The notes: generated from the sequence alone by a model not told the origin. A DNA stretch of 64,000 nt from an uncultured Chloroflexia bacterium (GCA_963700285.1 CAVOXA010000014.1:704001-768000), one strand, 5' to 3'; shown: positions 40,191 through 58,131, counted from the first letter of the stretch. Numbers and translations: made by a program.

Positions 40191-40386
40191 CCATCGCCTC
40201 ATGCTCAAGAGCAGTACGAGCCCTCAGCACCGTCTGACGGTCGGCATCCCGCCCAATGCGCAGTACCGGTTTCTGCTCTGTAACAACCATCACAGTGAGC
40301 GATATTCTATCAGAATACAGACGAAGCACTCGCCGAACTAGGTCCTTTGCGTTACTCTCCGTGGCCCTCTCTCGAGACAAGGACAT
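40168..40386 (-). CDS. Possible small hypothetical protein
   Basis: 72-aa ORF filling the gap between the REC gene and the dikinase gene, overlapping both. Confidence 0.25.
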   Translation of the reverse strand: MSLSRERATESNAKDLVRRVLRLYSDRISLTVMVVTEQKPVLRIGRDADRQTVLRARTALEHEAMDVTNSYL

Positions 40387-40723
40387 TCATGGCTTCAACC
40401 AACTGCGTGGGCGGGTTGGCCTTGCTGACAAATATATCTGCGCCAGCGGCCAGGGCACTCCCTTCATCCTCTGGTCGTCCACTTAGAACTACAACATAGG
40501 TATGGTTGCCTGAAGCACGGATTGCAGACAGCAACGTCTGGATCGGCGCCCCAGGCAGATCCCAGTCAAGCAAAACGATGTCGGGATGAGCCGGCACCAT
40601 CTGGCTTAGCAGATTCTCGCCGTCCGCTGCTTCGCCAACCACTTTCAAGCCATCCTCCTCCTGCAGAAGCATTCGAAGTGCGGAACGAGTGGCCGCTTGA
40701 CGGTCGGCTATTAGTATGCGCAT
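40352..40723 (-). CDS. Stand-alone response regulator receiver domain (NarL-type REC)
   Basis: MRILIAD, VVGEAAD, PDIVLLDWDLPG and AGADIFVSK. Confidence 0.8.
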   Translation of the reverse strand: MRILIADRQAATRSALRMLLQEEDGLKVVGEAADGENLLSQMVPAHPDIVLLDWDLPGAPIQTLLSAIRASGNHTYVVVLSGRPEDEGSALAAGADIFVSKANPPTQLVEAMNVLVSREGHGE

Positions 40724-40807
40724 GATCCTGTCCCCATGCCCAACAAACATGGCCCTCGAGTCAGCAGTTGGAGCTGCTGGCGGAGAGATGCCCACCATGG
40801 GACCAGG

Positions 40808-41467
40808 TCAGCAGGCACTGAACGCCTCGCGAAGGCTTTCTCGATCGAGCAGGATCAGTTTGCCGCGGCCAGATGCCACCCATCCGCGTTTTCGAAACTC
40901 CTGCAGGGTCTTGCTGATGGACTCGCGCCAGGTACCCAGCATGTCAGCCAGTTCATGGTGAGTGACATGAACAGCACGGTGCGGATCGTCGCCTGTCAGA
41001 TCCAGAAGCAGTGCTGCCAATCTAGAGGCGACAGTACTGTAGGCGGTCTGGGCCAGCCGGTCCTCTGTCTCTCGAACACGCTGGCCCATGGCCTGCACCA
41101 ACCCAAAGCCAAACAGGGCATCAGTCGCTGATATCTCCAGCGCTGCTTTGCCAGGCAAGATCCAGACCGTACAAGATTGCAGGCACACAGCATGCATATC
41201 GGGCGCTTCACCGCCCAGCAGGGATGCCTCTCCGAACATAGAACCGGTAGCCAGGGTAGCAACTACAAGGCGACGGCCATCTCTCCCTGTGCGGTAAAGC
41301 TGGACTCGGCCACTTGTCACCAGGAATATGGACTGGGCCATCTGCTGCGCAGTGCACACCGTCTTCCCTGTAGGAAAGGAGCAGATTCTCACCAGGCACT
41401 CCAATTCTCTGTTGCGTTGCACAAGACAACGGAAAATGCTCGTAGCATCCCTCTGTATAGGGTCCAC
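40808..41467 (-). CDS. Crp/Fnr family transcriptional regulator
   Basis: SGRVQLYR, FGEASLL and HTH THHELADMLGTWRESISKTL; GTG 41467 after GAGGGG (start uncertain). Confidence 0.85.
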   Translation of the reverse strand: MDPIQRDATSIFRCLVQRNRELECLVRICSFPTGKTVCTAQQMAQSIFLVTSGRVQLYRTGRDGRRLVVATLATGSMFGEASLLGGEAPDMHAVCLQSCTVWILPGKAALEISATDALFGFGLVQAMGQRVRETEDRLAQTAYSTVASRLAALLLDLTGDDPHRAVHVTHHELADMLGTWRESISKTLQEFRKRGWVASGRGKLILLDRESLREAFSAC

Positions 41468-41654
41468 TTTGCTGCCCCTCTGTCTGAGCACTCCATGCAG
41501 TGCAAACTTCACATTGCCGTCTTGTGCGCGAGGCTTCAGCCTCGCTACGTTCCAACCCGACCCCGATCGCATTGCCGAACTAGCAGCCAGGGGGCCTCCT
41601 CCACACACGCCCAGCTTGCTCATGGCTACGGCCTACAGACTGAATTGGTCAAAC

Positions 41655-41690
41655 AAGCCACCAAGGTACCGAATCGCGCCTTGGTGGCTT
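41655..41690. repeat. Inverted repeat upstream of the Crp gene
   Basis: AAGCCACCAAGG-12 nt-CCTTGGTGGCTT, perfect 12-bp arms. Confidence 0.55.
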
Positions 41691-41835
41691 TGGGACATCA
41701 CCGGGGACCGGATGCTGAACCCGGCGATGGCTTTCTACCGTAGGGCCCAGACCTGGTCTGGAGTTTTCCAGAACCATCGCCGCGACAATCTAGACGAGTC
41801 GCAGAAGAGCAGGCCTCAAGCCCACGGACTTGAGA

Positions 41836-42630
41836 TTACTGTCGGGTAGCCCCGGCGTTGCGGCGCAGGGAAAGTCCAGCGACGACCAGGGCAAGACCAA
41901 CACCCAACACAGCCAGCAACCACAGATTGGTGACCTCACCGCCGGTCTCTGGCATCGTAGCGGGATAGCTGGCATCTACGCTGGGCACAGCCTGCAGGGC
42001 AGGCTCACCACCGGCCAAGCCCATGGCGAACACCGTGTAGACCGTGCCCGCCTCAAGGGCGACGCCCGGCACGCTCAGGGCAACGGTCTCTGTTCCGGCC
42101 AGGCGAGCTTCAAGGTCGTACGTTCCAGCATCCACCGGTAGATAGTCACCGACGCCCTTGAACTCAACGTTGGCAAAGAGTACGGGCCCACCGTTGGCCA
42201 CGGCAATATCAACAGCCGGAGCATCGGGCGAGGCGTGGACAAAGCGCACGTGCGCTTTGCCGGCAGCCGGAGCGCTGTTGTTGTCGACAAGAACCAGGGG
42301 CTCAATGTTCTCCAACATGCCCACAGCCACCACCGTGTAGTCGGTCTGCGTCTCGAGTGGCAGGTCAGCCTCGATTACGACCGGCTCTGTGGCACCAGTG
42401 GGCGTCACCTGAACATTGTAAGTGGCGGGCTCAAGTTTTGCATAGTCAGTGATTCCGGTGAAGGGAGCGTTGCTAAAGGCAACAGCGCCATCCACCCACA
42501 CATCGACCGCCGGTGCGTCGGGTGAGGCATGCACAACCCGCACACGAGCCTCATGACCATCAGCAAAGGCGCTACTGGCCAAGGCGAGACTGAGAACTAG
42601 GACCGCGGATACGACTAACAGACGTTTCAT
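41836..42630 (-). CDS. DUF4397 domain surface protein with sortase-like signal (paralog 2)
   Basis: Colinear with and very similar to 18533-19345; C-terminal MPETGG, TM helix and RR. Confidence 0.85.
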   Translation of the reverse strand: MKRLLVVSAVLVLSLALASSAFADGHEARVRVVHASPDAPAVDVWVDGAVAFSNAPFTGITDYAKLEPATYNVQVTPTGATEPVVIEADLPLETQTDYTVVAVGMLENIEPLVLVDNNSAPAAGKAHVRFVHASPDAPAVDIAVANGGPVLFANVEFKGVGDYLPVDAGTYDLEARLAGTETVALSVPGVALEAGTVYTVFAMGLAGGEPALQAVPSVDASYPATMPETGGEVTNLWLLAVLGVGLALVVAGLSLRRNAGATRQ

Positions 42631-42922
42631 TTCTTACCTCCTTGAGTTAAACATAATGGGATTAGAGAAGCGAAGTATCGATAGACAAGCAGCGCGAGAT
42701 TGAGCCTGTCGACTAGTGGAAACTGGCACGCATCCTTTTTGAGTCGTAGTAGTAGTTGGTTTGAGACGGCTTTGACGCCGCCCTGTCGACATGGTCTTCG
42801 ACGCTTCTGAAAGTGATGGCTGTAGTGATAGTTTCATGATCAAGTCCTATGATGTAGTGCTTGGCATCCCAAGCCTGCAGACCAGTCCCCAGATCACTCT
42901 CAACGCTGCTCGAACTACAGGT

Positions 42923-42980
42923 ATTGTACCGCAAGGACGTGATTCCTGCACTAGGCGATGGTAGAGTCCTTGCGGCTAAT
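42923..42980 (-). promoter_or_regulatory. Palindromic promoter/operator element, copy 1
   Basis: CCGCAAGGAC...GTCCTTGCGG inverted repeat next to a TACAAT -10; 43 of 58 nt identical to 44715-44772 (manual ungapped count). Confidence 0.7.
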
Positions 42981-43052
42981 TCTCATCTAGCCACAAGGTT
43001 AGATGCGGCTTAGCCACCCGGCTAGGTTCGTCGGGAACCTGCGATCCTCGGT

Positions 43053-43088
43053 GGTCCTGGGCCAAGGCATGTACCTTGGCCCAGGACC
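43053..43088 (-). terminator. Strong hairpin after the DUF4397 tandem gene
   Basis: GGTCCTGGGCCAAGG-catgta-CCTTGGCCCAGGACC, a 15-bp stem 8 nt past the stop codon; no U-tract. Confidence 0.6.
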
Positions 43089-43096
43089 CACCAGCC

Positions 43097-44518
43097 TTAC
43101 TGTATGTTGTTGAACATAAGAGGCAGATACAGCATGGCTTTTTCCGGCACCAGGAATCCTGGCTTCCCACTCGGCAGGATAAAGAGGGCAGCCGGTTGGT
43201 TCCCAGCATCTCCCACGGCAAAGGCAGACAGGATGTCACCATCCCCCAACCTGATAGGCAGCGGATCGATCAACGTCGTGCTGCCATCAGCCGTTGTGAT
43301 TTTGAAATCATACATCCCCTCCGGCAGTTCCGAGTAAGGGGCGATGGTGTCATACGGCACATCATCGAGGATAACGGTCCCGTCCTGCAACCGCACGTCG
43401 GCCTTGGTGTCCGCAGCATCAGTGGCAAAGGGCGCCAGGTGACCGATTCGGACCTTGCCCTTCCCGGCTGACGGCGCCGCATTGTCATCCTCGAGCAACT
43501 CAAGGCCCAGATCCCAGCCATTCGCACCGCCTTTGGCGATGGCCACATAGTCCTTGGTATGGTTGAGATTGACCGTGGCGCTGATGGCCGCTGTGGTACT
43601 GCCCGCTGGGAAGACTTCTACCAGATGGTCCACACCGGCTTCCACAGGCAAGTACGCGGTCGAATCCGCAAACTCAAAGCCGTCCAGCACCTCTGTGCCG
43701 TCCAGCTCTATGGACACCGCCGTGTCAGGATCCATGGCAAACGGTGCCAGGTGCGCGACCTGTAGCGATGCGGCCAGCGGCAGCAGGCTGCCTTCCTCCC
43801 CGCTCGGCAGGGCAAAGGCCCCCACCGGCTGGTTCCCACCATCACCTACTGCAAACACAGAGACGATGTCACCAGCACTCAGTGTCACCGGCATCGGATC
43901 GATCAGAGTCGTACTTCCGTCGGCGGTCGTGATCTTCAGGTCGTATGTCCCGGCATCCAGCTCAAGGTAATCGGCGACGGCCCCATAGGGTACATCGTCC
44001 AACAGGACTGTCCCATCCTGCAGCCGCACATCCGCCTTGGTATCCGCTTCCAGGGCGGCAAAGGGTGCAAGGTGGCCGATGCGCACCTTTGCTTTTCCAC
44101 CTGGTGGTGCGGCGTTGTTATCCTCGAGTAGCTTCAGACCGAGGTCCCAACCATTACCACCCCCGATCGCAATAGCCGTGTACTCCATATCCTCCATCAA
44201 GTTCACGGTTGCGCTAATGGCTGCTGTAGTACTGCCGGCTGGGAACACCTCGATCAGATGGTCAACGCCAGCCTCCAATTTGAGATACTCTGTCGAATCG
44301 GCAAACTCAAAGTCGTTTAGCACAGCCGTACCGTCCACCTCAATAGTCACGGCCGTATCTGGATCTTGGGCAAACGGCGCCAGATGCACGACGGCGAGTT
44401 TCGCCATCGTGGCCGATGGCGCCACCTGTTCTGTATCTTCCTGGGCAATAGCCATGATGCCCAGAACAACCACCAATGCCAGCACTAGGGCCAGCACCAA
44501 AGCAAGTCTTTTCATCAT
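43097..44518 (-). CDS. Tandem-duplicated DUF4397 surface protein with Chloroflexi-type C-terminal tail
   Basis: Signal peptide; two ~210-aa internal repeats (HLAPFA..PDTAV...KVRIGHLAPFA); ends MLYLPLMFNNIQ. Confidence 0.8.
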   Translation of the reverse strand: MMKRLALVLALVLALVVVLGIMAIAQEDTEQVAPSATMAKLAVVHLAPFAQDPDTAVTIEVDGTAVLNDFEFADSTEYLKLEAGVDHLIEVFPAGSTTAAISATVNLMEDMEYTAIAIGGGNGWDLGLKLLEDNNAAPPGGKAKVRIGHLAPFAALEADTKADVRLQDGTVLLDDVPYGAVADYLELDAGTYDLKITTADGSTTLIDPMPVTLSAGDIVSVFAVGDGGNQPVGAFALPSGEEGSLLPLAASLQVAHLAPFAMDPDTAVSIELDGTEVLDGFEFADSTAYLPVEAGVDHLVEVFPAGSTTAAISATVNLNHTKDYVAIAKGGANGWDLGLELLEDDNAAPSAGKGKVRIGHLAPFATDAADTKADVRLQDGTVILDDVPYDTIAPYSELPEGMYDFKITTADGSTTLIDPLPIRLGDGDILSAFAVGDAGNQPAALFILPSGKPGFLVPEKAMLYLPLMFNNIQ

Positions 44519-44917: not shown

Positions 44918-45568
44918 TCAGGATTTCGGTACGAGATTATGTTGAAACGCAAGCGCGGCAGCCTCAGTCCGGTTCGAGGCTCCCAACTTGGAGAGGATGC
45001 TACCAACATGGTATTTCGCGGCGGCCACACTCACGACCAGACGCTCTGCAATCTCGGCATTGGAATGCCCTTGGACGAGCAAGGCCAAAACGTCTCTCTC
45101 CCGGTCCGTCAGGTCATCGCCCATCTTGACCGAGGGCTGGCCAGCACGGACCAGGGCTTGCACCGCCTCCGGCGCCAACGTGGGTCGCCCGGCGTAGGCG
45201 GCACGTATCGCCTCGGCAAGCTCATCCATGGACGCGCCCTTGAGCAAGTAACCGACAGCGCCTGCTTGCATAACACCCTGTACCAGGTCGCCACTGTAGA
45301 AGCTGGTCAAGGCCAATACCTGCACCTGGGGATACCGCTTCCGGAGCGCCCTTGTTGTTTCGACACCATCCATCCCGGGCATCATCATGTCCATCAAGAC
45401 AACGTCGGGCTGCACCTGACCGCATAGATCTAGGGCTTCCTCACCACTTTGGGCTTCTCCTACGACTTCAATATCGTCGAAGGCGAGCAATAGGAATCGG
45501 ATCCCCCCTCTGAGGATTTCATGGTCGTCGACAGTCATGACACGAATCTTTTGTGTTTCTCCCATCAT
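44918..45568 (-). CDS. NarL/LuxR family response regulator
   Basis: VDDHEILRGG, PDVVLMDMMMPGMDG and LTDRERDVL...SNAEIAERL HTH. Confidence 0.92.
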   Translation of the reverse strand: MMGETQKIRVMTVDDHEILRGGIRFLLLAFDDIEVVGEAQSGEEALDLCGQVQPDVVLMDMMMPGMDGVETTRALRKRYPQVQVLALTSFYSGDLVQGVMQAGAVGYLLKGASMDELAEAIRAAYAGRPTLAPEAVQALVRAGQPSVKMGDDLTDRERDVLALLVQGHSNAEIAERLVVSVAAAKYHVGSILSKLGASNRTEAAALAFQHNLVPKS

Positions 45569-45578
45569 CCCATCCCCT

Positions 45579-48170
45579 TCAGGCTGCAGGCCACACCACC
45601 TCGACCCGGGTACCATGGCCAGGACGGCTGGCTATGTTCAGTTTGGCACCGATGGCCTGCGCACGCTCTCGCATGATCTCCAGGCCCAACTGGTGGGCCT
45701 GGACCCTGTCTCCGTCAAAGCCAAGGCCATTATCACACACCTTCAACCTCGCCTGCCCTGGCTCACAGTGAAGGCTAAGCTCTGCCTCGCTGGCTCGAGC
45801 ATGTTTGCTGATGTTATTGAGCGCTTCCTGGGCTATGCGGTAGAGGGCGACCCGGACATCACCTGGCAGAGTACAGTCGCCCATCACGTTTGCCGTCACG
45901 GGCATGCGGGTACGGCCCATCATAGCATCCGCCAACTGACGGAGGAGCACACCTAGCTCGTGTTCCAGCAGGGCAGCCGGTCGCAGTTCCAGCAACATGG
46001 TACGCATTTCGGCAAGCGCACCTTGAGTCAACAAGCGAAGCTCCTCCAAGCCGTGACGGGCCTCTTCCGGGTTGCGCTCCCAGACCCGGGGCAGAGCCTC
46101 AGAAATCGCCGCTACCGAAAACAGGGTCTGGGTGACGGCATCGTGGAGTTCGCGCGCAATCCGTTCCCGTTCCGCACTGGCAGCAGCTTCCTCAAGCTGG
46201 AGCTCGGCCTTCCTTCGGTGAGTGATATCCTGGGTCGCTACCACCACACTATCTATCTCACCCGATTCATCGAACAGTGGCGCCGCATTTGAGGAGAGCA
46301 AGAGCTGGGTTCCGTCAGACATTTTGATTCCGTGCTCGATGTTTTGGACCGGTTCGCCGCAGCCCATCACCCGGGCAAAAGGCAGTTCCTGGTCGGGGAG
46401 AGGCTTGCCATCCTTGGCGGTGCCCTGCCATACTGGATCGTTGTAGGAACGCCCCAGAAGTGTGGTAACCCCCCTCGCCTGATCCGCAAGCTGCTGCAGC
46501 AATCGGTTGGAAAAAGTCATTCGCCCGTGCCGGTCAAATACAGCGATTCCCACTGGACTGGTGTCCATCACTCTAGCAATGAGATCGCGCTCCCATTGCA
46601 GCGCTTCCTCGATCTGCTTGCGCTCCGTCATATCCCGCGAGGCAACGACCACGCCCGCAACCGAGCCATCTAGGTCCTGCACCGGGTAGTAGCCGACATC
46701 CATGTACTTGGCCTCTTCATCGGGCACAGGAAACCAGGCCTGGAAGTGAACCTCATCGCCAGCGAGGCACCGATCCAGATGCGGCTTCACTTGTTCTTCA
46801 AAGACTCTCGTGCCCAAGAGTTCCGCCACGTGCATGCCTACGATCTCTGCCCGTGGCTTCTTGGCAAACTCAGCGTATGTCTCGTTGACCGCACGATAGA
46901 CATAGTCACCGTCGACATAGGATATCGGATCAGAGACTGTGCCTACGATGGTCTCATACCGGCGCAGCGTGCTCTCCACGCGCTTGCGCTCGGTGATATC
47001 CCGCAGTGCTCCATAGACCCGTACAACGCGGTCACGGCCATCATCCCAGACTGGTTTTCCGCTGTGGTGCAGCCACCGCAGTCGGCCATCCTTGGTGATG
47101 ATCCGGAGCTCATGGGCATCTTTCTGGCCCGAGAGCAGTCTCTGCATGTGCTCCTGGACGGCAGGCAAGTCTGCCGGATGGACTATGCGCTCCCAGCCAC
47201 CGTGAGTCTCCAGCTCCTGCGCCGAAAAACCTGTGACCCGGTCGAGCGACTGCGTCATCCATTCAGGTGACAGGCTTCCGTCGCAATCTACACGAAAAGC
47301 GTAGGCCAGATCTGTATTGAGTTGTGAGACCGCCCGGTATCTCTCCTCGCTGGAGCTCAACGCCTTCTCTGCCGATACCCGCTCCGCGATTCTGCCCAGC
47401 CGCTCGGCGATGGCATTGAGCAAGCGTCTCTCTTCCCTCAAGAAGGGGCCTTCGTCCCGGTCTGGCCGGGCCTCTTTGTAGTAGACTTCGATGCTGCCAG
47501 AAAGCTTGTCGTAGACCCTGATGCCGCAGCTCTGCTTCCATTCCGTTGCTACAAATCCTCTTGATTGGTATGTCCGCCCATGAAGGACCACACGCGCACA
47601 CGCGATCTCTGGATATTGCCAGGCTGGCGGTATGAGGTCCGCCGTGCCCGCGAGGATATCTGGCAAGAAGAGGTCTGCCTGCTCGATCAGTCTGGAAATA
47701 CCATAGAGACAATCCAGCTCTTTCACCCGCTCCTTGACTTCATGCATCTGGACCCGGAGCATCTCCTCCGCGTGCTGAATGCGCAGCATCGCCTTCACCC
47801 GAGCCACAAGCTCCCGCTCGGAAGCTGGCCGAACGATATACTCATTCGCACCCTCTTCCAAGCCCTCGGCCTGGCTGGCAGAGTCAATCCTCCTACCGGA
47901 GAGCATAGCCACGAAAGTATTGGCCAGCGCTGGGTCAGCCTTGATCCGCCGGCATACCTCCATACCGTCCATGTCGGGCAAAATGACATCGAGAAGGATC
48001 AGGTCTGGCCTGACCTCCCTCGCCAGACGCAGACCCTCGCTGCCCGTAGCCGCCTCCACCACCTGATAGCCTGCATCCGTCAGCAGCCGCGATGTGGAGT
48101 GCAGCAGAAACGGCTCGTCGTCAACGATGAGTACTCGGGCCGCACTGGCAGGATCCTTGCTCTGTGTCAT
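45579..48170 (-). CDS. Hybrid sensor kinase REC-(GAF-like)-PAS x3-HisKA_3-HATPase
   Basis: N-terminal REC (VDDE, LLDVILPD); three PAS/PAC ends (RDITERK, RDMTERK, QDITHRR); ERERIARELHDAVTQ, QEALNNISKHA and DNGLG. Confidence 0.92.
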   Translation of the reverse strand: MTQSKDPASAARVLIVDDEPFLLHSTSRLLTDAGYQVVEAATGSEGLRLAREVRPDLILLDVILPDMDGMEVCRRIKADPALANTFVAMLSGRRIDSASQAEGLEEGANEYIVRPASERELVARVKAMLRIQHAEEMLRVQMHEVKERVKELDCLYGISRLIEQADLFLPDILAGTADLIPPAWQYPEIACARVVLHGRTYQSRGFVATEWKQSCGIRVYDKLSGSIEVYYKEARPDRDEGPFLREERRLLNAIAERLGRIAERVSAEKALSSSEERYRAVSQLNTDLAYAFRVDCDGSLSPEWMTQSLDRVTGFSAQELETHGGWERIVHPADLPAVQEHMQRLLSGQKDAHELRIITKDGRLRWLHHSGKPVWDDGRDRVVRVYGALRDITERKRVESTLRRYETIVGTVSDPISYVDGDYVYRAVNETYAEFAKKPRAEIVGMHVAELLGTRVFEEQVKPHLDRCLAGDEVHFQAWFPVPDEEAKYMDVGYYPVQDLDGSVAGVVVASRDMTERKQIEEALQWERDLIARVMDTSPVGIAVFDRHGRMTFSNRLLQQLADQARGVTTLLGRSYNDPVWQGTAKDGKPLPDQELPFARVMGCGEPVQNIEHGIKMSDGTQLLLSSNAAPLFDESGEIDSVVVATQDITHRRKAELQLEEAAASAERERIARELHDAVTQTLFSVAAISEALPRVWERNPEEARHGLEELRLLTQGALAEMRTMLLELRPAALLEHELGVLLRQLADAMMGRTRMPVTANVMGDCTLPGDVRVALYRIAQEALNNISKHARASEAELSLHCEPGQARLKVCDNGLGFDGDRVQAHQLGLEIMRERAQAIGAKLNIASRPGHGTRVEVVWPAA

Positions 48171-49399
48171 GCCCCACTCCTGTCGTCAGACCCCTGCTCA
48201 AATTGGATAGGCAGCGATACGTAAAAGGTAGAGCCCTTGTCCACCTCGCTCTCTACCCAGATCCTTCCCCGGTGTCCCGCGACAATCCGCCGCGCTATGG
48301 CCAGCCCCAATCCGGTACTCCTTTCTCCCTCTGTCCCCCTCACGCTGGTTCTGCCAAACCACTTGAACAATCTGTCGATCTCTTTGGCTGGAATACCCTG
48401 CCCCTCATCTCTGACCGAGACCACTACCTGATCTGCCATTCGCTCCAGACCTACCTCCACCTGGCTTCCCTGGTGGGAGAACTTGACCGCATTGGAAATG
48501 AGGTTGTTCAAGACCTGCTCTATCTTGACAGGATCTAGCAGCATCAAAGGTAGTGATTCCTCATGTCGAAAAGAGAGACGAATCTGCTTGCTGTCCGCCA
48601 GAATGCTATTCAATACCAGATTGCGGTCGATCAGAGCGACCAGGTCTGTCGGTTCAAGCGAGAGGACCAGCCGGCCAGACTCGATGGCAGACACGTCCAG
48701 CAGGTCTTCGACCATCTGCAGCATGAAGCCGCCATAGGACTCGATGATTGATAGGAACTCAATCTGTTCCTCCTCTAGCCGGGACGAGGCCCTGTCCAGC
48801 AAAAACCGGGCACAAGACTGAACGACAAAGAGTGGGTTGCGCAAGTCATGAGCGGCCATACCCAGGAACTCATCCTTGAGCTTGATGAGCTTCTCCAACT
48901 CGGCGTTACTCTTGGCTAGCTCTCTTTGGAGCGTGACCAGCTCATTGTTCAGGCGGCTCAGTTCATCGTAGAGCGCGGCGGTTCGTCCAGTGTGGAGGCG
49001 CTCCATTTCAGTGCGTTCCTTGACCGCTTGCCGCAGGGCTGACGTCTGTTCTCCACTGATCTGCGCAAGCTCATCACAGAACCGGCCCAACGCGCTGGAA
49101 CTTGTCGCCGCTATGATCAGGAGCTTGCTGCCAGCGACGACTCCCGTAAAGTGCAACACCTGAACGCCACCGTTGTCAGAGACAGTTAATTCCCAGTCAA
49201 AGGCCGTGCCCCGGGCTCGCACGACGGCCAGAAAGCTAAGTGCCTTGCCAAGGCCAGGTGGATCGATGAGCTGAGTGAAAGGACGGCCCAGTCGCGCCTT
49301 GCTGGCCATCGCCAGGTCGTCGTGTAGCACCTGCTCAAGCAATCCCTGGGCATCGCATAGCAGTGCAAGGCCGGGAACCTCTGCGATTGAGTTCATCAT
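48167..49399 (-). CDS. Cytoplasmic sensor histidine kinase (HisKA-HATPase) with coiled-coil linker
   Basis: LYDELSRLNNELVTLQREL coiled coil; AAHDLRNPL, NLISNAVKF, DEGQG and GLGLAI; ATGA overlaps on both sides. Confidence 0.9.
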   Translation of the reverse strand: MMNSIAEVPGLALLCDAQGLLEQVLHDDLAMASKARLGRPFTQLIDPPGLGKALSFLAVVRARGTAFDWELTVSDNGGVQVLHFTGVVAGSKLLIIAATSSSALGRFCDELAQISGEQTSALRQAVKERTEMERLHTGRTAALYDELSRLNNELVTLQRELAKSNAELEKLIKLKDEFLGMAAHDLRNPLFVVQSCARFLLDRASSRLEEEQIEFLSIIESYGGFMLQMVEDLLDVSAIESGRLVLSLEPTDLVALIDRNLVLNSILADSKQIRLSFRHEESLPLMLLDPVKIEQVLNNLISNAVKFSHQGSQVEVGLERMADQVVVSVRDEGQGIPAKEIDRLFKWFGRTSVRGTEGERSTGLGLAIARRIVAGHRGRIWVESEVDKGSTFYVSLPIQFEQGSDDRSGA

Positions 49400-50460
49400 T
49401 CCTCATCCACCATGCACATGGCCAGTGTTACAGCTTCCTGGGCATCGGGGGCATAGCCATGGGCGCCAATGGTCCTCCACAGCCCCGGCGAAAGGTTGAA
49501 AGGATAGCCGCCTACCAGGACCCGCACCATCTTGGTCGCCTCCGCGCTCTGCACTCGAGCAACAAGGTCGGCCACAGCGCTGACATGAAACGTCATCGTA
49601 GCTGAAATGGCCAGAATCTCTGCATCGCGTTCTTTGAGTGTGCGCAAGATGCTATCCGCCGGAGTGTTGGCCCCGAGGTAGTAGGCGTCCCATCCCTCTA
49701 TCTCAAAAAAGTCGGCCACCATCCGCGCCCCAAGCTCATGCAGCTCACCGCCCACACAGGTAACGACAGCCCGGTGGCCAATCCTCTCGGCGGAAAAAAC
49801 GTGGGGATAAAGCTGGGACATGATGAGCTGCGTGGCTGCCGTACAGTAGTGCTCTTGGGCCACTGTAACCTGGTTCATCTGCCACAGGCGCCCGATCTCG
49901 CGCTGCGCGCGCTGAAAAACGTAGAGATATAGGTCCTTGATCCCGGCGCCTGCCTGAACTGCGTCGAGGACGAGTGCACTGGCCACATGCCGTTCCCCCT
50001 GCAGAAGAAGACGGAGATAGTCCCGTGCCAGATCCACCAGTGGGGCATCTGGTTCCAGATGGGTTGGCAGAGTGGGGGAGGTCTTTCGTAGCTTGTCAAG
50101 GGCTGCAGCACAATAATCGTCCGTGATGGCACTCAAATCCGGGGGTAGATGTTGTCCAAGTACATCACGCATACATTGGAGGGTAGCCACCAAGACCTCA
50201 TCGGGAAAACCAAGGCCGGCAAAGAGTACTTTGGTCCAGGCTGAGTAGTTGGCAAAAAGATTAGGATCGCAGACGGACAGCGCTTGCGCCAAGTAGGTCA
50301 GGTGATAGCCCACATCGCGGACCGATTTCTCTCTCCCTTCCTCCCCGTAGCGCGCCCAGGGCTCTGCCTGGAGGGCATACTGGAGGTCAACAACCTCCTT
50401 CGCCAGGCTTGTCAATTGCTCATCAATGATCTGGCTCGCTTTCGAAGCATCTTTGCTCAT
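49396..50460 (-). CDS. Globin/phycobiliprotein-like domain + CarH-type cobalamin-binding protein (no DNA-binding domain)
   Basis: W-x9-EH (WQMNQVTVAQEH), E-x-H-x2-G (ELHELG), YLGANTP and VLVGG; helical N-domain KSVRDVGYHLTYLAQAL...LFANYSAW. Confidence 0.85.
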   Translation of the reverse strand: MSKDASKASQIIDEQLTSLAKEVVDLQYALQAEPWARYGEEGREKSVRDVGYHLTYLAQALSVCDPNLFANYSAWTKVLFAGLGFPDEVLVATLQCMRDVLGQHLPPDLSAITDDYCAAALDKLRKTSPTLPTHLEPDAPLVDLARDYLRLLLQGERHVASALVLDAVQAGAGIKDLYLYVFQRAQREIGRLWQMNQVTVAQEHYCTAATQLIMSQLYPHVFSAERIGHRAVVTCVGGELHELGARMVADFFEIEGWDAYYLGANTPADSILRTLKERDAEILAISATMTFHVSAVADLVARVQSAEATKMVRVLVGGYPFNLSPGLWRTIGAHGYAPDAQEAVTLAMCMVDEE

Positions 50461-51067: not shown

Positions 51068-51721
51068 CTAGTGCCCGCAGAAGGACCTGGACGCCACGTC
51101 TGCAGAATCTGGCTCAGCGGCAGGCACTTCTACCGGCGTCCAGTAGCTGCGCATCTTCAGCGGGGAAGGCCGGATCGCCACCCAGGCGCTCCTTCTCACC
51201 AATGACAAAGGTATAGCGGCCCAACTTCACCCTGGGGATGCCAAACTGCCACCAAGTACTGGCCTCTCGTGGGCAGCGTCACCCGCTCTTCCTGGCGCTC
51301 CCAGTAGGAGGTGCCGCTGAACGGCTCGTAGAAGGTGGGAGCGGGTCCGGGTGGCGGCTCAAGCACCAATGCACCTGAGCCTCTCCGGCAGAACTACCCC
51401 CGCCGGCACTTTGTTCTTTGGCAAGCCTGGCCCCATCAGGAACATTGTCGGCGCAAAGTCCTTCTGGCCCTCGACCTGGGGAATGGTCAGTTCTAGAAGG
51501 ATCACCTCGTTCTCCAAGCCCTCAAAGGCAAAGTAGTCCACGTCGACGGCCGAAGACAGGGTGGCATAGATGGCTGTCGAGATGCTGGGATCTCTTATCT
51601 GCCAGGGGTGGTCGGAACTGATGTCCGTATCCTCGAAGAATGGCTGATGTGCCAGTATCGCCGTTGGAGCCAGCACGGAAAGGCTGAGTACCACTACTAT
51701 TCCCAGTATTGTACGTTGCAT
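51068..51721 (-). CDS. Secreted hypothetical protein (frameshifted)
   Basis: Signal peptide ending in AHQPFFE; continues FYEPFSGTSYWERQE and GRYTFVIGEKE in other frames; probable TAG at 51068. Confidence 0.6.
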
Positions 51722-51724
51722 CCC

Positions 51725-53353
51725 CTATTCTCCTAGATGGTCTTCTAGAGTTCCTCGAGACCCGCAATGCCACAATCTGAACCTGCTATCCAAAGTCTCC
51801 TGGGCCTCCCGGTTAACTGGTCCAGAGCATGCTGGGATCAGCGGAAAAAAGCTACTGTTCCGCTCTTCGGCCATGACCGAGCTCGCCACCCGCATGCCAC
51901 CCAGCGCGACCGCCGGCACGGACTGGCCGGGAAAGATGCTGTCACCCACCATCCACAAACTGGGTGCCAGCCGGGGTCCCCAAGCACGAAAGAGGTTGGT
52001 CTGAGGAAAGCCACCCACCCAGCCCCAGGCCCGCCGCGTGAAGCGCTGGAAGGTAACCGGGGTACCGGGTAGGATGAGGTCTACCGCCTCCCGAAGGTTG
52101 GGCAAAGCTACCTCGGCAGCATCCAGAACTCGCTCGACGAAGGCCTGCTTTCTGATCTCGTAGGCGGTCTATCGTGTTCGAATAGATCCCACCAGCCATC
52201 CAACTCTGTGTGTGTGCTTATGGTAAGCGCCCGCCGCCCATCTGGCGCCCTACCAGCGTCCCAGGCTGGACTCAACGAGAGAAAGACCGTGTTGCCATTG
52301 CCAAATGGCTCCCGAAGCACGACCTGGTGGTGGAGGGCAGACTGCGTCGGCACAACCGAGGCATCCAGGCCCACATAGACCATGTAGGCCCCCCATACTT
52401 CTCGCGGCTTTGGGCGGCAGCTCCTTCAGCCGGTGGGGCGCATTGTCTCCCAACAGTCGCGCTATGTTCCAGGGGGTCAGGTTAAAGACGACCGTCTCAG
52501 CCGGAAAGGACGCCCCCTTGTTGGTCTCCACGGCCACAGACCGACCTTTGCTGCTCAGAGCGATTCGCGTCGCCTGCTGGCGAAAATGGACCTGCCCGCC
52601 ATAGCGGCGCACAGCATCCACCAGCTCGCCAGCAATGGCCCCCATGCCGCCCTCGGCGTGCGCAGCTCCCCTCCGAGGTAGATCGAGTGCGGAAGCGCCA
52701 TAGAGGGCATTGGTGTAGCGGCTGGTTGTCTGCGAGGCGATCAGCAACTGGCCATCGACAAAGTAGCGCAGTCGCTCTGAGCGCGCACTGACTGGTCCCT
52801 GCAGGTGGGAAGCCACCGGCCGTAGAGCATCCAGAGCGAGACCCGGTTTGAGCCTTTCTCGTAGATCTTTCCCCAGCCAACCGAAAGCTTGGCCGGCAAG
52901 GTGGGCTGCCTCGCCATAGGCTTGGGGAGGCCAGTCAGGCAGACGCAGGGCGAGGTCCCACATCGCGTCAGAAGTCCGCTCCTGCCAGCGCCAGAATGCC
53001 TCTGATTCAGGACCAAAAGCGCCGCGACGCTCAGCCCAGCGCTGCTTGCCCCGCCACCTCTTCACACAGCTACCATCCGGCAGATGCGAAACCATGACCG
53101 GATCCGCTGGCCGGACGGGCCAGGCTTCGATACGCAGAGCATCACCGACCAAGTCCATGGGGCCGCCTGGGTAGAAGCCGGCTGCCAGCGTTGCGCCAGC
53201 GTCAAAGCGGTAGCCCTGATGGTAAAATGTCCCGGCACAGCCCCCTGCATAGACGTGGGCTTCAAGGACCGTGACATTCAGTCCGGCTCGCGCCAGCAGG
53301 GCTGCTGTCGTTAGTCCGCCGACTCCGGCGCCAACGACCACAACGCGGTTCAT
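51725..53353 (-). CDS. CrtI/CrtD-family FAD-dependent carotenoid desaturase/isomerase (frameshifted)
   Basis: [16 protein letters not shown]...[25 protein letters not shown]...GWVGG and VGDSIFPGQ; ORFs 52250-53353, 52108-52383 and 51725-52105. Confidence 0.8.
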
Positions 53354-55859: not shown

Positions 55860-56782
55860 TTCAGCAGGTTCCTCAGCGCACTCTCTGCATCGGGAAAATG
55901 GAAGGTAAACCCCATCTCCAGCAGACGCTGGGGAAGGCCCAGCTGACCCTCCAATACCACGCTGGACACGTCACCAACAGCCGCCCGCATGGCAAAGCCT
56001 GGCACAGGGATCAGGGATGGCCTTCCCAGGACGCGGCCCATGGCTTTCCCAAATGCAGCATTGGTGATGGGCACCGGGGCGACGAGATTGAACGGCCCCC
56101 TGGCCGCTTCGTGCTCGATCAGAAAGCGGATAGCCCGAACCTCGTCCTGCAAATGAATCCAGGGCAACCATTGCTTCCCACTACCCAGCGGACCTCCAAC
56201 AAAGAGGCGATAGGGCAGCAGCCACCGGGGCAGCGCTCCCCCCTCGGTATCGAGCACAGCCCCACTCCGTGCGATAACCCGCCGCATGCCCATTGCTTCT
56301 ACAGCCTCCGTCGAGGGCTCCCACTCGTTGGCAGCAAGATCTGCCAGGAAGCCAGTCCCCGGTGGCGCGTCCTCAGTGACCTCGTCATTGCCCGTGTTGC
56401 CATAGTAGCCAATGCCTGAGGCCTGAACGACGACCCGAGGTTTCTCCTTGGCGGCCTCAGCCGCCTCTACCACGGCGCGTCCGGCCCAGACCCGGCTATC
56501 GCGAATAACCCTCTTTCTCTCTGCCGTCCATCTGCTGGGAAAAAAGCCAGGGCCAGCCAGGTTCGAGCCGGCCAGGTTGACGATGGCGCCGGCGCCGTCA
56601 GCCAGATGCTCCCAGCCTTTGGCAGTACGTGCATCCCAGCCAGCGACCTGGACGCCGTCTGGCAGGCCAGATTCTCGTTCTGGGGAGCGAGTCAAGACCA
56701 CGACCTGGTGTCCATCCACAACAAGATTCGCAGCAAGCGCCCGGCCAATGAGGCCAGTACCGCCTGTTATGATCACCCGCAT
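55856..56782 (-). CDS. TIGR01777-family NAD(P)-dependent epimerase/oxidoreductase
   Basis: ITGGTGLIG, VNLAG, RW....K..IRDSRV, GGPLGSGKQWLPWIH and GPFNLVAP. Confidence 0.88.
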   Translation of the reverse strand: MRVIITGGTGLIGRALAANLVVDGHQVVVLTRSPERESGLPDGVQVAGWDARTAKGWEHLADGAGAIVNLAGSNLAGPGFFPSRWTAERKRVIRDSRVWAGRAVVEAAEAAKEKPRVVVQASGIGYYGNTGNDEVTEDAPPGTGFLADLAANEWEPSTEAVEAMGMRRVIARSGAVLDTEGGALPRWLLPYRLFVGGPLGSGKQWLPWIHLQDEVRAIRFLIEHEAARGPFNLVAPVPITNAAFGKAMGRVLGRPSLIPVPGFAMRAAVGDVSSVVLEGQLGLPQRLLEMGFTFHFPDAESALRNLLK

Positions 56783-58131
56783 GCTAAATTCTCCTCGTTT
56801 CCTCTACCTAATCCGTTCTCGTATATCACTGTGCTCAGCCATTCCAGGACAGGCTCCGCCCGTCCATTGAGGTTCTGGCTGGCTGCCTGGTGGTAGCATC
56901 CCAAATACCTGATCAATGCCTCGTCCGACAGATAGTGGTTGCTTAGCAGGCCCCTTAGCCAGTCAAGATCCGTGCTGAGAAAATCCATATCCCCCAAGGC
57001 CAGGGCGGCATCGATGTTGCTGGCAAGCTCCCGGGTTGCAACAGCAAGGTGGCGAGGCTCAATCTCCACCGGGCCCAGCCTTCGCGCCAAATCGGCCTCA
57101 ATCTGCCCCCGTCGCTCCTCAAAGTGATCCCTGGCAATTGGAAACGCCTCTGGAAGGGCCACAGTTCGAGCTACTGGATGAGGAGCAGCCATCAGTACTT
57201 CCACGACATCTGGGGCTGAAGGCAGACGCTCACCAAGAAAATGACCTGGAATCCGAGCGCGCGATGCCGGCAGCAGATTGAAGATCAGGCCCCCGTAAGC
57301 CAGCGGCACACCCTCCGCCTGCAGAAACTGGGCTGCCTCGAGCAGGGACGCCGCGCTGGTGAGTCGCTGAGCGGCCATCACCACCAAGTGAGGGCTCTTC
57401 ATGGTCAGGGTCGTTTCCAGTCGCTCTACCGGCACGTTCGCGCCCAGGTAGATGACGTCCCATCCCCTGCGCCGCAAGAGAAAAGTCAGCAAGAGCAGGC
57501 CGAATACGTGCTGCTCCTGAGGTGGGCAGGCGATGAGGATCCGGCCTGAACGGGTCGGAGGCGGAGAGGCCATGATCAGAGCCTCTAACCTTCGATTGGC
57601 CAGCGCCGAGCAAAAGTGCTCCTGTTGAACCGTAGCCTCGCCACGATACCATTTGTCGCCGATCTGCGACATAGCGGCCTGGAGCAGCTCAAGAGCCACC
57701 GTCTCTGGCGAATAGAGAGCAAATGCCTGGGCCAGGGCCTGTTCCGACCGCTGTTCGTCATAGGCCAGGCAGGCCGAGATCCAGTCTTCACGCAATTCGA
57801 TCAGCGTCGCCCCCAGAGCCGGAGGCGCGTGAGACGGCACTGGAAGCAGGCCGGCACTTGCCGGGGCGGCCAGCGGATCCTGGCCCTCCGCCTCGATCTG
57901 CCGCCACAGATCTACCGCCCGCGCGATGCTGAGGCCTTCCTGCTGGCGGGCTGTGAGCCATTTGAGCGTTTCAATGTCGTACCGTGTATAGAGTCGATGG
58001 CCGCCACTGCTGCGGTGGGGTGTGGGCAGGCCGTAGCGCCGCTCCCAGGCACGCAATGTATCCGGCTTGAGGCCGGTCTGCTGCACCACCGCTTTCAAGT
58101 TGAAAAAGGGCCCTTCGCTGCTGTTCGTCAC
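56773..58131 (-). CDS. carH: CarH/LitR-type AdoB12-dependent MerR repressor with extra C-terminal helical domain
   Basis: MerR HTH (DTLRAWERRYGLP..GGHRLY), W-x9-EH (WYRGEATVQQEH), EQHVFG and YLGANVP; ~130-aa C-terminal extension. Confidence 0.85.
   Translation of the reverse strand: MTNSSEGPFFNLKAVVQQTGLKPDTLRAWERRYGLPTPHRSSGGHRLYTRYDIETLKWLTARQQEGLSIARAVDLWRQIEAEGQDPLAAPASAGLLPVPSHAPPALGATLIELREDWISACLAYDEQRSEQALAQAFALYSPETVALELLQAAMSQIGDKWYRGEATVQQEHFCSALANRRLEALIMASPPPTRSGRILIACPPQEQHVFGLLLLTFLLRRRGWDVIYLGANVPVERLETTLTMKSPHLVVMAAQRLTSAASLLEAAQFLQAEGVPLAYGGLIFNLLPASRARIPGHFLGERLPSAPDVVEVLMAAPHPVARTVALPEAFPIARDHFEERRGQIEADLARRLGPVEIEPRHLAVATRELASNIDAALALGDMDFLSTDLDWLRGLLSNHYLSDEALIRYLGCYHQAASQNLNGRAEPVLEWLSTVIYENGLGRGNEENLACG

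Follow-up and report, generated by a model that had tools for sequence, protein, structure and literature searches.

Four adjacent genes of an uncultured Chloroflexia bacterium raise the question of how a protein with the motifs of a B12-dependent light sensor, but without a DNA-binding domain, might pass on its signal. All four lie on the minus strand of the window (i.e., the whole stretch of 64,000 nucleotides analyzed here), in the order sensor, first kinase (HK1), second kinase (HK2), and NarL-type regulator. To our judgment the balance tips slightly towards the following reading: the sensor is a globin-first photocobilin, likely with coenzyme B12 bound, whose light-dependent docking on a conserved helix, here called the NNEL helix, likely switches HK1. 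The genes are as follows.

49396..50460, minus strand: sensor, 354 aa, assigned as a stand-alone globin-first photocobilin (Pfam, sequence search, structure model)
48167..49399, minus strand: HK1, a soluble HisKA kinase (His184) of 410 aa, assigned as the dedicated partner of the sensor (Pfam, motifs)
45579..48170, minus strand: HK2, 863 aa, with a receiver, a 145-residue stretch, three PAS domains, HisKA_3, and HATPase (Pfam, motifs)
44918..45568, minus strand: NarL-type response regulator, 216 aa, ATG at 45568, with D60, K110, and a GerE helix-turn-helix (Pfam)

The initial annotation had drawn this layout correctly: the four genes, the ATGA overlaps that join sensor to HK1 and HK1 to HK2, the 10 nt between the HK2 stop and the regulator start, and the sensor motifs W-x9-EH and E-x-H-x2-G are all confirmed in the sequence. 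Given the ATGA overlap and the 10-nt gap, HK1, HK2, and the regulator likely share one transcript. A promoter and terminator scan at the locus yielded nothing useful, with minus-strand promoter matches absent. The earlier claim that there is no obvious transmembrane helix agrees with the hydropathy of the sensor and HK1: their strongest 19-residue segments (1.65 and 1.64, respectively) sit within strands or helices of soluble folds, so neither protein has a convincing membrane helix.

The sensor is composed of two domains.

50080..50433, minus strand: photoglobin domain, residues about 10-127, with D49 and W75 corresponding to SasPcob Asp270 and Trp296 (alignment, fold)
49429..50028, minus strand: four-helix cap and Rossmann B12 domain, with G190xxW193, E203H204, G238xxH241, and G263xxxP267, and with Q194 at the position of CarH His132 (Pfam, signature, fold)

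Pfam places B12-binding_2 at residues 145-217 and B12-binding at 230-344, together with a weak Phycobilisome match at 35-116 (E 3.9e-4, below the cut-off); no DNA-binding domain appears in the scan, as had been claimed before. Both light motifs, W193-x9-E203-H204 and E239-x-H241-x2-G, arise together in 7 of 10,000 shuffles of the protein. The four elements of the B12 light signature as given in the text of PMC11796333 (GxxW, EH, GxxH, and GxxxP) are all present, and its W, E, H, and H are invariant in 139/139 sequences. In the globin, D49, H53, and W75 are invariant across all 117 aligned sequences (the window protein plus 116 of the 120 relatives listed). Alignment with SasPcob, with the numbering offset checked against Trp61, Glu71, and His72, shows that the bilin-pocket residues D49 and W75 are kept and that, with S46, the covalent Cys is absent. 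The position following the cap Trp is Q in 108 and H in 4 of the 139 sequences; as Q194 here replaces CarH His132, a bis-His light state is ruled out.

By sequence, the closest solved relatives are SasPcob (E 2e-28) and AbPcob (E 5e-19), with CarH behind (E 3e-9). Sensor residues 34-104 align with the C-terminal globin of SasPcob, which means that the order of globin and B12 domain is swapped between the two. The structure model (pLDDT 94) matches 8J2W over residues 139-353 (Z 26.4, rmsd 1.8, 208 residues) and smURFP/allophycocyanin over residues 1-127 (Z 17, rmsd 2.0-2.1, 126-127 residues); Foldseek alone puts CarH-type domains on top and 8J2W tenth. Judged by sequence and model, the sensor is thus a photocobilin, in which a bilin-type globin precedes a CarH-type B12 domain, and it likely binds coenzyme B12. 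The CarH-type signature noted originally stands, and the protein that carries it belongs to the photocobilin family. This sensor family is large (4526 matches among 8000 scored candidates), but its distribution around the host is patchy, as only 4 of 60 relatives of the host genome hold a close copy.

HK1 matches HisKA and HATPase in Pfam and has two further features that the initial annotation did not include.

49106..49372, minus strand: PAS-fold input domain of HK1, residues about 10-98, without a Pfam family (model, Foldseek)
48884..48973, minus strand: NNEL helix of HK1, residues about 143-172, predicted docking site (profile, conservation)

The helix core has the consensus Y[DE]ELSRLNNELxxxQRELAKKN, and N151 of HK1 lies 33 residues ahead of His184. 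This spacing is nearly fixed: a strict HisKA H-box pattern occurs within 60 residues of the helix in 55 of 78 partners, and the distance from the first Asn to the phospho-His is 33 residues in 53 of these 55 direct HisKA partners and 40 (an extra heptad) in the other two, with the coiled-coil register fixed. Among 21 partners picked for variety from the 78, the outputs behind the helix comprise HisKA, HisKA_2, PAS, and GAF kinases as well as GGDEF domains. Given that kinases of several types and GGDEF cyclases all come after it, the helix looks like a portable docking site, and because the PAS part is often missing (e.g., L002, L004, L105, and L132), it is the minimal element. Partners that do have the PAS domain show, at the level of the consensus, a second and decayed copy of the helix motif directly after it; in HK1 this copy (residues 108-127, window about 49020-49080, minus strand) is decayed further. 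A Pfam scan of 80 members of this N-terminal family gave weak coiled-coil and PAS matches only, HNOBA (an Atlas lead under 0.9) was not among the best 25 of 52 Pfam families, and a PDB sequence search with the partner N-terminal profile found no meaningful match. The closest fold of the HK1 N-terminal model was taken from Foldseek alone, where 4L9G (PpsR) ranks 23rd.

Whether sensor and helix belong together can be read from other genomes in both directions. In the forward direction, 114 sensor loci were fetched, of which 98 had at least 600 nt downstream or a fusion and 16 were dropped for too little downstream DNA; L031-L060, being short duplicates or distant B12 domains, were left out of the counts. 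Among the 82 loci with an in-frame globin, the helix lies in the next 1 kb in 77, is fused in one, lies upstream in two, and is absent from two (it was not found near the sensors of L025 and L121). In other words, it sits behind or is fused to 78/82 globin-fused sensors; with sensors clustered at 70% identity, the figure is 54/57 clusters. This count is partly circular, because 72 of the same loci went into the helix profile, and kin loci are not independent in it. The 16 loci without an in-frame globin include three with the helix behind the sensor, one fusion, and 12 of a Chloroflexaceae type scoring below 25 bits. Nine of these 12 were inspected and carry a stand-alone PAS protein with a variant helix at its end, and two of the nine have a separate globin-like gene. 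L012 and L140 encode sensor and helix in a single chain.

The reverse test makes no use of the sensor: the partner N-terminus profile was run against four phylum samples (401, 251, 251, and 251 genomes) with the seed genomes excluded. It returned 35 non-seed places, of which 18 (in 17 genomes) have a helix of at least 20 bits, and every one of these 18 clear helices has a W-x9-EH B12 gene no more than about 1.5 kb away. The remaining 17 matches fall into six that directly flank a B12 gene, eight weak PAS-only matches from another Chloroflexaceae-type kinase family (three of which face a B12 gene), and three with no B12 gene in 12-13 kb. In the 7-Mb genome of the host, HK1 is the sole match of the helix profile, and in nine other genomes the module likewise occurs at a single locus. 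The module is present in Chloroflexaceae too, and we place further sensor-helix pairs in Pseudomonadota, Acidobacteriota, Spirochaetota, a Bacteroidota-type lineage, Bacillota, Planctomycetota, Desulfobacterota, and a methanogen. The coupling of sensor to HK1 is hence well supported, and the two form a genuine pair of sensor and kinase that is well conserved and whose sensor belongs to a published family.

Several loci show variations on this arrangement. In L098/L099, three different kinases, each with an NNEL helix, are encoded upstream of a single photocobilin gene, and one sensor may thus serve several outputs. A split form of the Chloroflexaceae type (L148, L149, and L150; L172-L174) consists of a PAS-helix-STAS-like gene, a B12 domain, a stand-alone PAS-helix, and a stand-alone globin-like gene; its STAS-like output presumably resembles that of RsbR-like proteins. 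The methanogen locus L013 encodes a B12 domain and a separate globin-like protein, followed by a PAS-helix-HisKA_2 kinase. Finally, L180/L198 (L198:5849-6610) counts against the pairing: its PAS module has a decayed helix and a short output, 13 kb of surrounding DNA lack a B12 gene, and the module is possibly an orphan or the partner of a distant sensor.

The complex prediction that had been suggested as a check was run with one cofactor-free sensor and two copies of HK1 residues 100-245, a set-up that differs from the one used for calibration. It scored 0.37 against 0.04 for the best control; the runs share at least 87% of contacts, with a partner pLDDT of at least 81, and the interface is not given. 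In the calibration, the mark was reached by 116/157 solved pairs and 2/215 mismatched pairs. Because the marks up to 0.60 cover only 18 of the solved pairs and both mismatched ones, the prediction adds weak support to a strong genomic prior. Taking both together, we hold it quite probable that the sensor binds HK1 via the NNEL helix. The published precedent, in the text of PMC10979010, is that stand-alone photocobilins alter cyclase activity in trans; by analogy, the sensor likely docks on the helix and switches the kinase with light.

The mechanism we propose draws on four features seen in the sequence: the sensor has the B12 photoreceptor signature and keeps both residues of the bilin pocket, sensor and helix occur together whichever of them is searched for, and helix and phospho-His stand a fixed distance apart. 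The conformational steps of the sensor are modeled on SasPcob, AbDPcob, and AppA-PpsR. A dark sensor loaded with adenosyl-B12 would be a head-to-tail dimer. Light would cleave the Co-C bond and thereby move the Glu-His helix of the four-helix cap, and this shift would alter the binding of the sensor to the HK1 coiled coil. The change in binding would travel along the coil to the His184 bundle and turn HK1 on or off, and HK1 would phosphorylate D61 of the HK2 receiver. The phosphorylated receiver would then tune the autokinase activity of HK2, alongside its PAS inputs, and HK2 would in turn phosphorylate the NarL regulator.

Light is probably the main input, given the sensor signature and a second B12 sensor, a MerR-type CarH, which heads the same minus-strand run. 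An alternative keeps the same docking and kinase control and makes the cellular signal the supply or form of B12, or light combined with oxygen, instead of light alone. Many of the hosts, Syntrophobacteraceae, Desulfosporosinus, and a methanogen among them, are presumably anaerobes, which raises the question why anaerobes would keep such a sensor. The genes of the CarH island recur near other sensors only in one genome of the same genus (G001). According to the text of PMC10979010, adenosyl-B12 alone already lowers the cyclase activity of AbDPcob relative to the apo form, and published work on CarH indicates that its monomerization needs oxygen to be effective. We nevertheless regard this alternative as unlikely: the light signature is invariant throughout the relatives, and the signature-bearing proteins tested so far, as far as the published accounts go, are light-responsive; moreover, the bilin pocket is kept, the Chloroflexaceae hold the module as well, and the window has a separate CarH 6 kb upstream. 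As for cofactors, the host genome (89% complete) has a PduO-type adenosyltransferase, CobA was not found in it, and neither was a canonical heme oxygenase, for which reason bilin may be lacking. The missing heme oxygenase and the many presumed anaerobes speak against a simple two-colour sensor.

Downstream of HK1, the picture changes. HK2 matches REC, three PAS domains, HisKA_3, and HATPase in Pfam and keeps its H, N, and D-G kinase boxes; about 145 residues between the receiver and the first PAS (residues 130-275, window 47345-47780, minus strand), which the initial annotation passed over, have no Pfam match and are presumably GAF-like. The NarL-type regulator matches REC and GerE. Candidate phospho-acceptors are present at all four positions (HK1 H184, HK2 D61, HK2 H676, and regulator D60), as a four-step relay would have it. 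However, HPt is absent from the Pfam scan of the four proteins, and with an ATPase domain HK2 is a complete kinase. Two kinases acting in cascade are therefore more likely than a single phosphate passed through four sites; from the relay of the initial annotation, the coupling of sensor to HK1 survives.

The proposed survey of the four-gene order turned out against its conservation: the complete order, with the HisKA_3 kinase and NarL, was seen in two close relatives only, G001 of the same genus and G013 of the same family. Of 81 loci with 1.8 kb available downstream, 53 encode an HK1-type kinase after the sensor, and 20 of these 53 continue with a related receiver; within 5.5 kb, NarL genes occur in 3/51 loci and HisKA_3 genes in 4/51. 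The conserved unit is sensor plus HK1, and HK2 and the NarL regulator are local add-ons. These counts also favor a reading with two separate units, sensor with HK1 and HK2 with NarL, in which the HK2 receiver would be a phosphate sink or be fed by another kinase and NarL would follow the PAS inputs of HK2, not light. The HK2 receiver (D17, D18, and D61) fits this in having Arg114 for the usual Lys, a replacement that may impair switching, as work on CheY indicates. Yet the likely single transcript speaks against such a separation, as do the gene order in G001 and G013 and the receivers themselves, whose subfamily (44-75% identity) recurs behind HK1 on differing outputs; among related receivers near sensors, D61 is found in 21/21 and Arg for Lys in 17/21. 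We give the two-unit reading little weight, and see a good chance that HK1 feeds the HK2 receiver. Least credible by far is that the sensor is a corrinoid methyl carrier with incidental neighbors: relatives are named MtbC1 in databases and the fold matches MtmC and methionine synthase (Z 22-23), but the 40 corrinoid-type domains in the same alignment all lack the W-x9-EH that the sensor has, the top folds are photocobilins (Z 26), and the next gene encodes a signaling protein in nearly all loci.

The neighboring genes deserve a short description. The MerR-type CarH (56773-58131, minus strand) has W-x9-EH and an extra C-terminal region with a weak match to the photoglobin profile (7.5 bits), and is possibly a DNA-binding photocobilin. 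It heads a run of a DUF1731 epimerase, an ABC transporter, an FAD oxidoreductase, and DUF4345. This run stops at the sensor, and its synteny extends to G001 only. The FAD oxidoreductase (51359-53353, minus strand; L061/L035 in G001), which we take to be phytoene-desaturase-like, and the gene following it look split by frameshifts, and the G001 sensor gene is in three pieces; these splits are probably assembly indels. Beyond the NarL gene (40352-44518, minus strand) lie two DUF4397 proteins, a Crp-type regulator, and a lone receiver, all candidate targets; the DUF4397 and Crp genes, the two checked, are kept in G001.

Several elements of this locus are already known, namely the photocobilins and a prediction (2021) of their place in two-component operons, and the docking element was not found in print in a search of largely open-access literature. 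The closest solved systems are SasPcob (8J2W and 8J2X) and AbDPcob (8J2Y) of Zhang et al. 2024 (PMC10979010), which likewise combine the W-x9-EH cap, the Rossmann domain, and a bilin-type globin in one chain. SasPcob shares the Asp270/Trp296 pair, the absence of the bis-His ligand, and the stand-alone form. It differs in His137, which is S270 here, and both solved proteins differ in having the globin at the C-terminus, not the N-terminus, although the text of PMC10979010 states that both orders exist. That text only guesses at the natural partner of SasPcob and leaves the signal output of stand-alone photocobilins open, whereas the present locus names a kinase with a dedicated 30-residue site. 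With it, control of a histidine kinase by a B12 light sensor can be assayed directly; the same literature search found no paper that tests such a kinase. Schneider et al. 2021 (PMC8717448) predicted that photoglobin and B12 domains, in either order, act as light sensors in two-component operons, multi-kinase cascades included. Neither a dedicated partner nor a docking motif is mentioned in its text, which lists the S-helix among the transmitters, and its figures and supplements may show the NNEL helix as such.

CarH/LitR have the same adenosyl-B12 photoreceptor signature and fold, but identity with these repressors was rejected, as the N-terminal DNA-binding domain and the His of the bis-His ligand (His132) are both absent here, a globin is added, and a second protein gives the output. 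The most instructive comparison is with AerR/PpaA-CrtJ/PpsR and AppA-PpsR2 (4HH3). AppA binds the PpsR dimer through a four-helix bundle at the Q-linker behind the N-terminal PAS, and AerR has been modeled on CrtJ in the same way, according to PMC9144470, PMC3949515, and PMC10151467. A helix behind the partner PAS is thus the docking site there and the predicted one here, and in 8 of 9 ppsR loci fetched, a B12-fold gene likewise lies just before a partner with PAS and long helix. In 134/139 of the sensor sequences and 7/7 AerR/PpaA proteins, the residue 18 positions behind the cap Trp is Gln; counting from this Trp, Q211 of the sensor would correspond to AerR Gln112, a proposed contact to the CrtJ linker. 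On the other hand, AerR/PpaA lack the Glu-His pair and show no globin match, and their partner is a helix-turn-helix repressor instead of a HisKA kinase. In profile comparison, the partner N-terminus matches the PpsR N-domain at 94.7% (E 5.6e-8, 105 columns). The PAS profile by itself also finds the N-domain best, with PAS1 at 76-82% and PAS2 at 5-8%, although PAS1 is preferred (94%) with its Chloroflexaceae subset; for the helix by itself, the match to the Q-linker is weak (12-16%). In view of these controls, we say that the pair works like AppA-PpsR, not that it belongs to that family. Grafted onto many outputs in nature, the helix is a lead for a two-part optogenetic switch. A bolder reading, which we consider doubtful but worth stating, is that PAS and NNEL helix share ancestry with the PpsR N-domain and Q-linker and together act as a portable docking module, which places any dimeric enzyme (several kinase classes, diguanylate cyclases, and STAS proteins) under a separate B12 photoreceptor. 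If so, a 30-residue tag could bring a chosen coiled-coil enzyme under green- or red-light control, and AerR-CrtJ, AppA-PpsR, and the pairs described here would represent a single ancient switch that has reached eight or more bacterial phyla as well as archaea.
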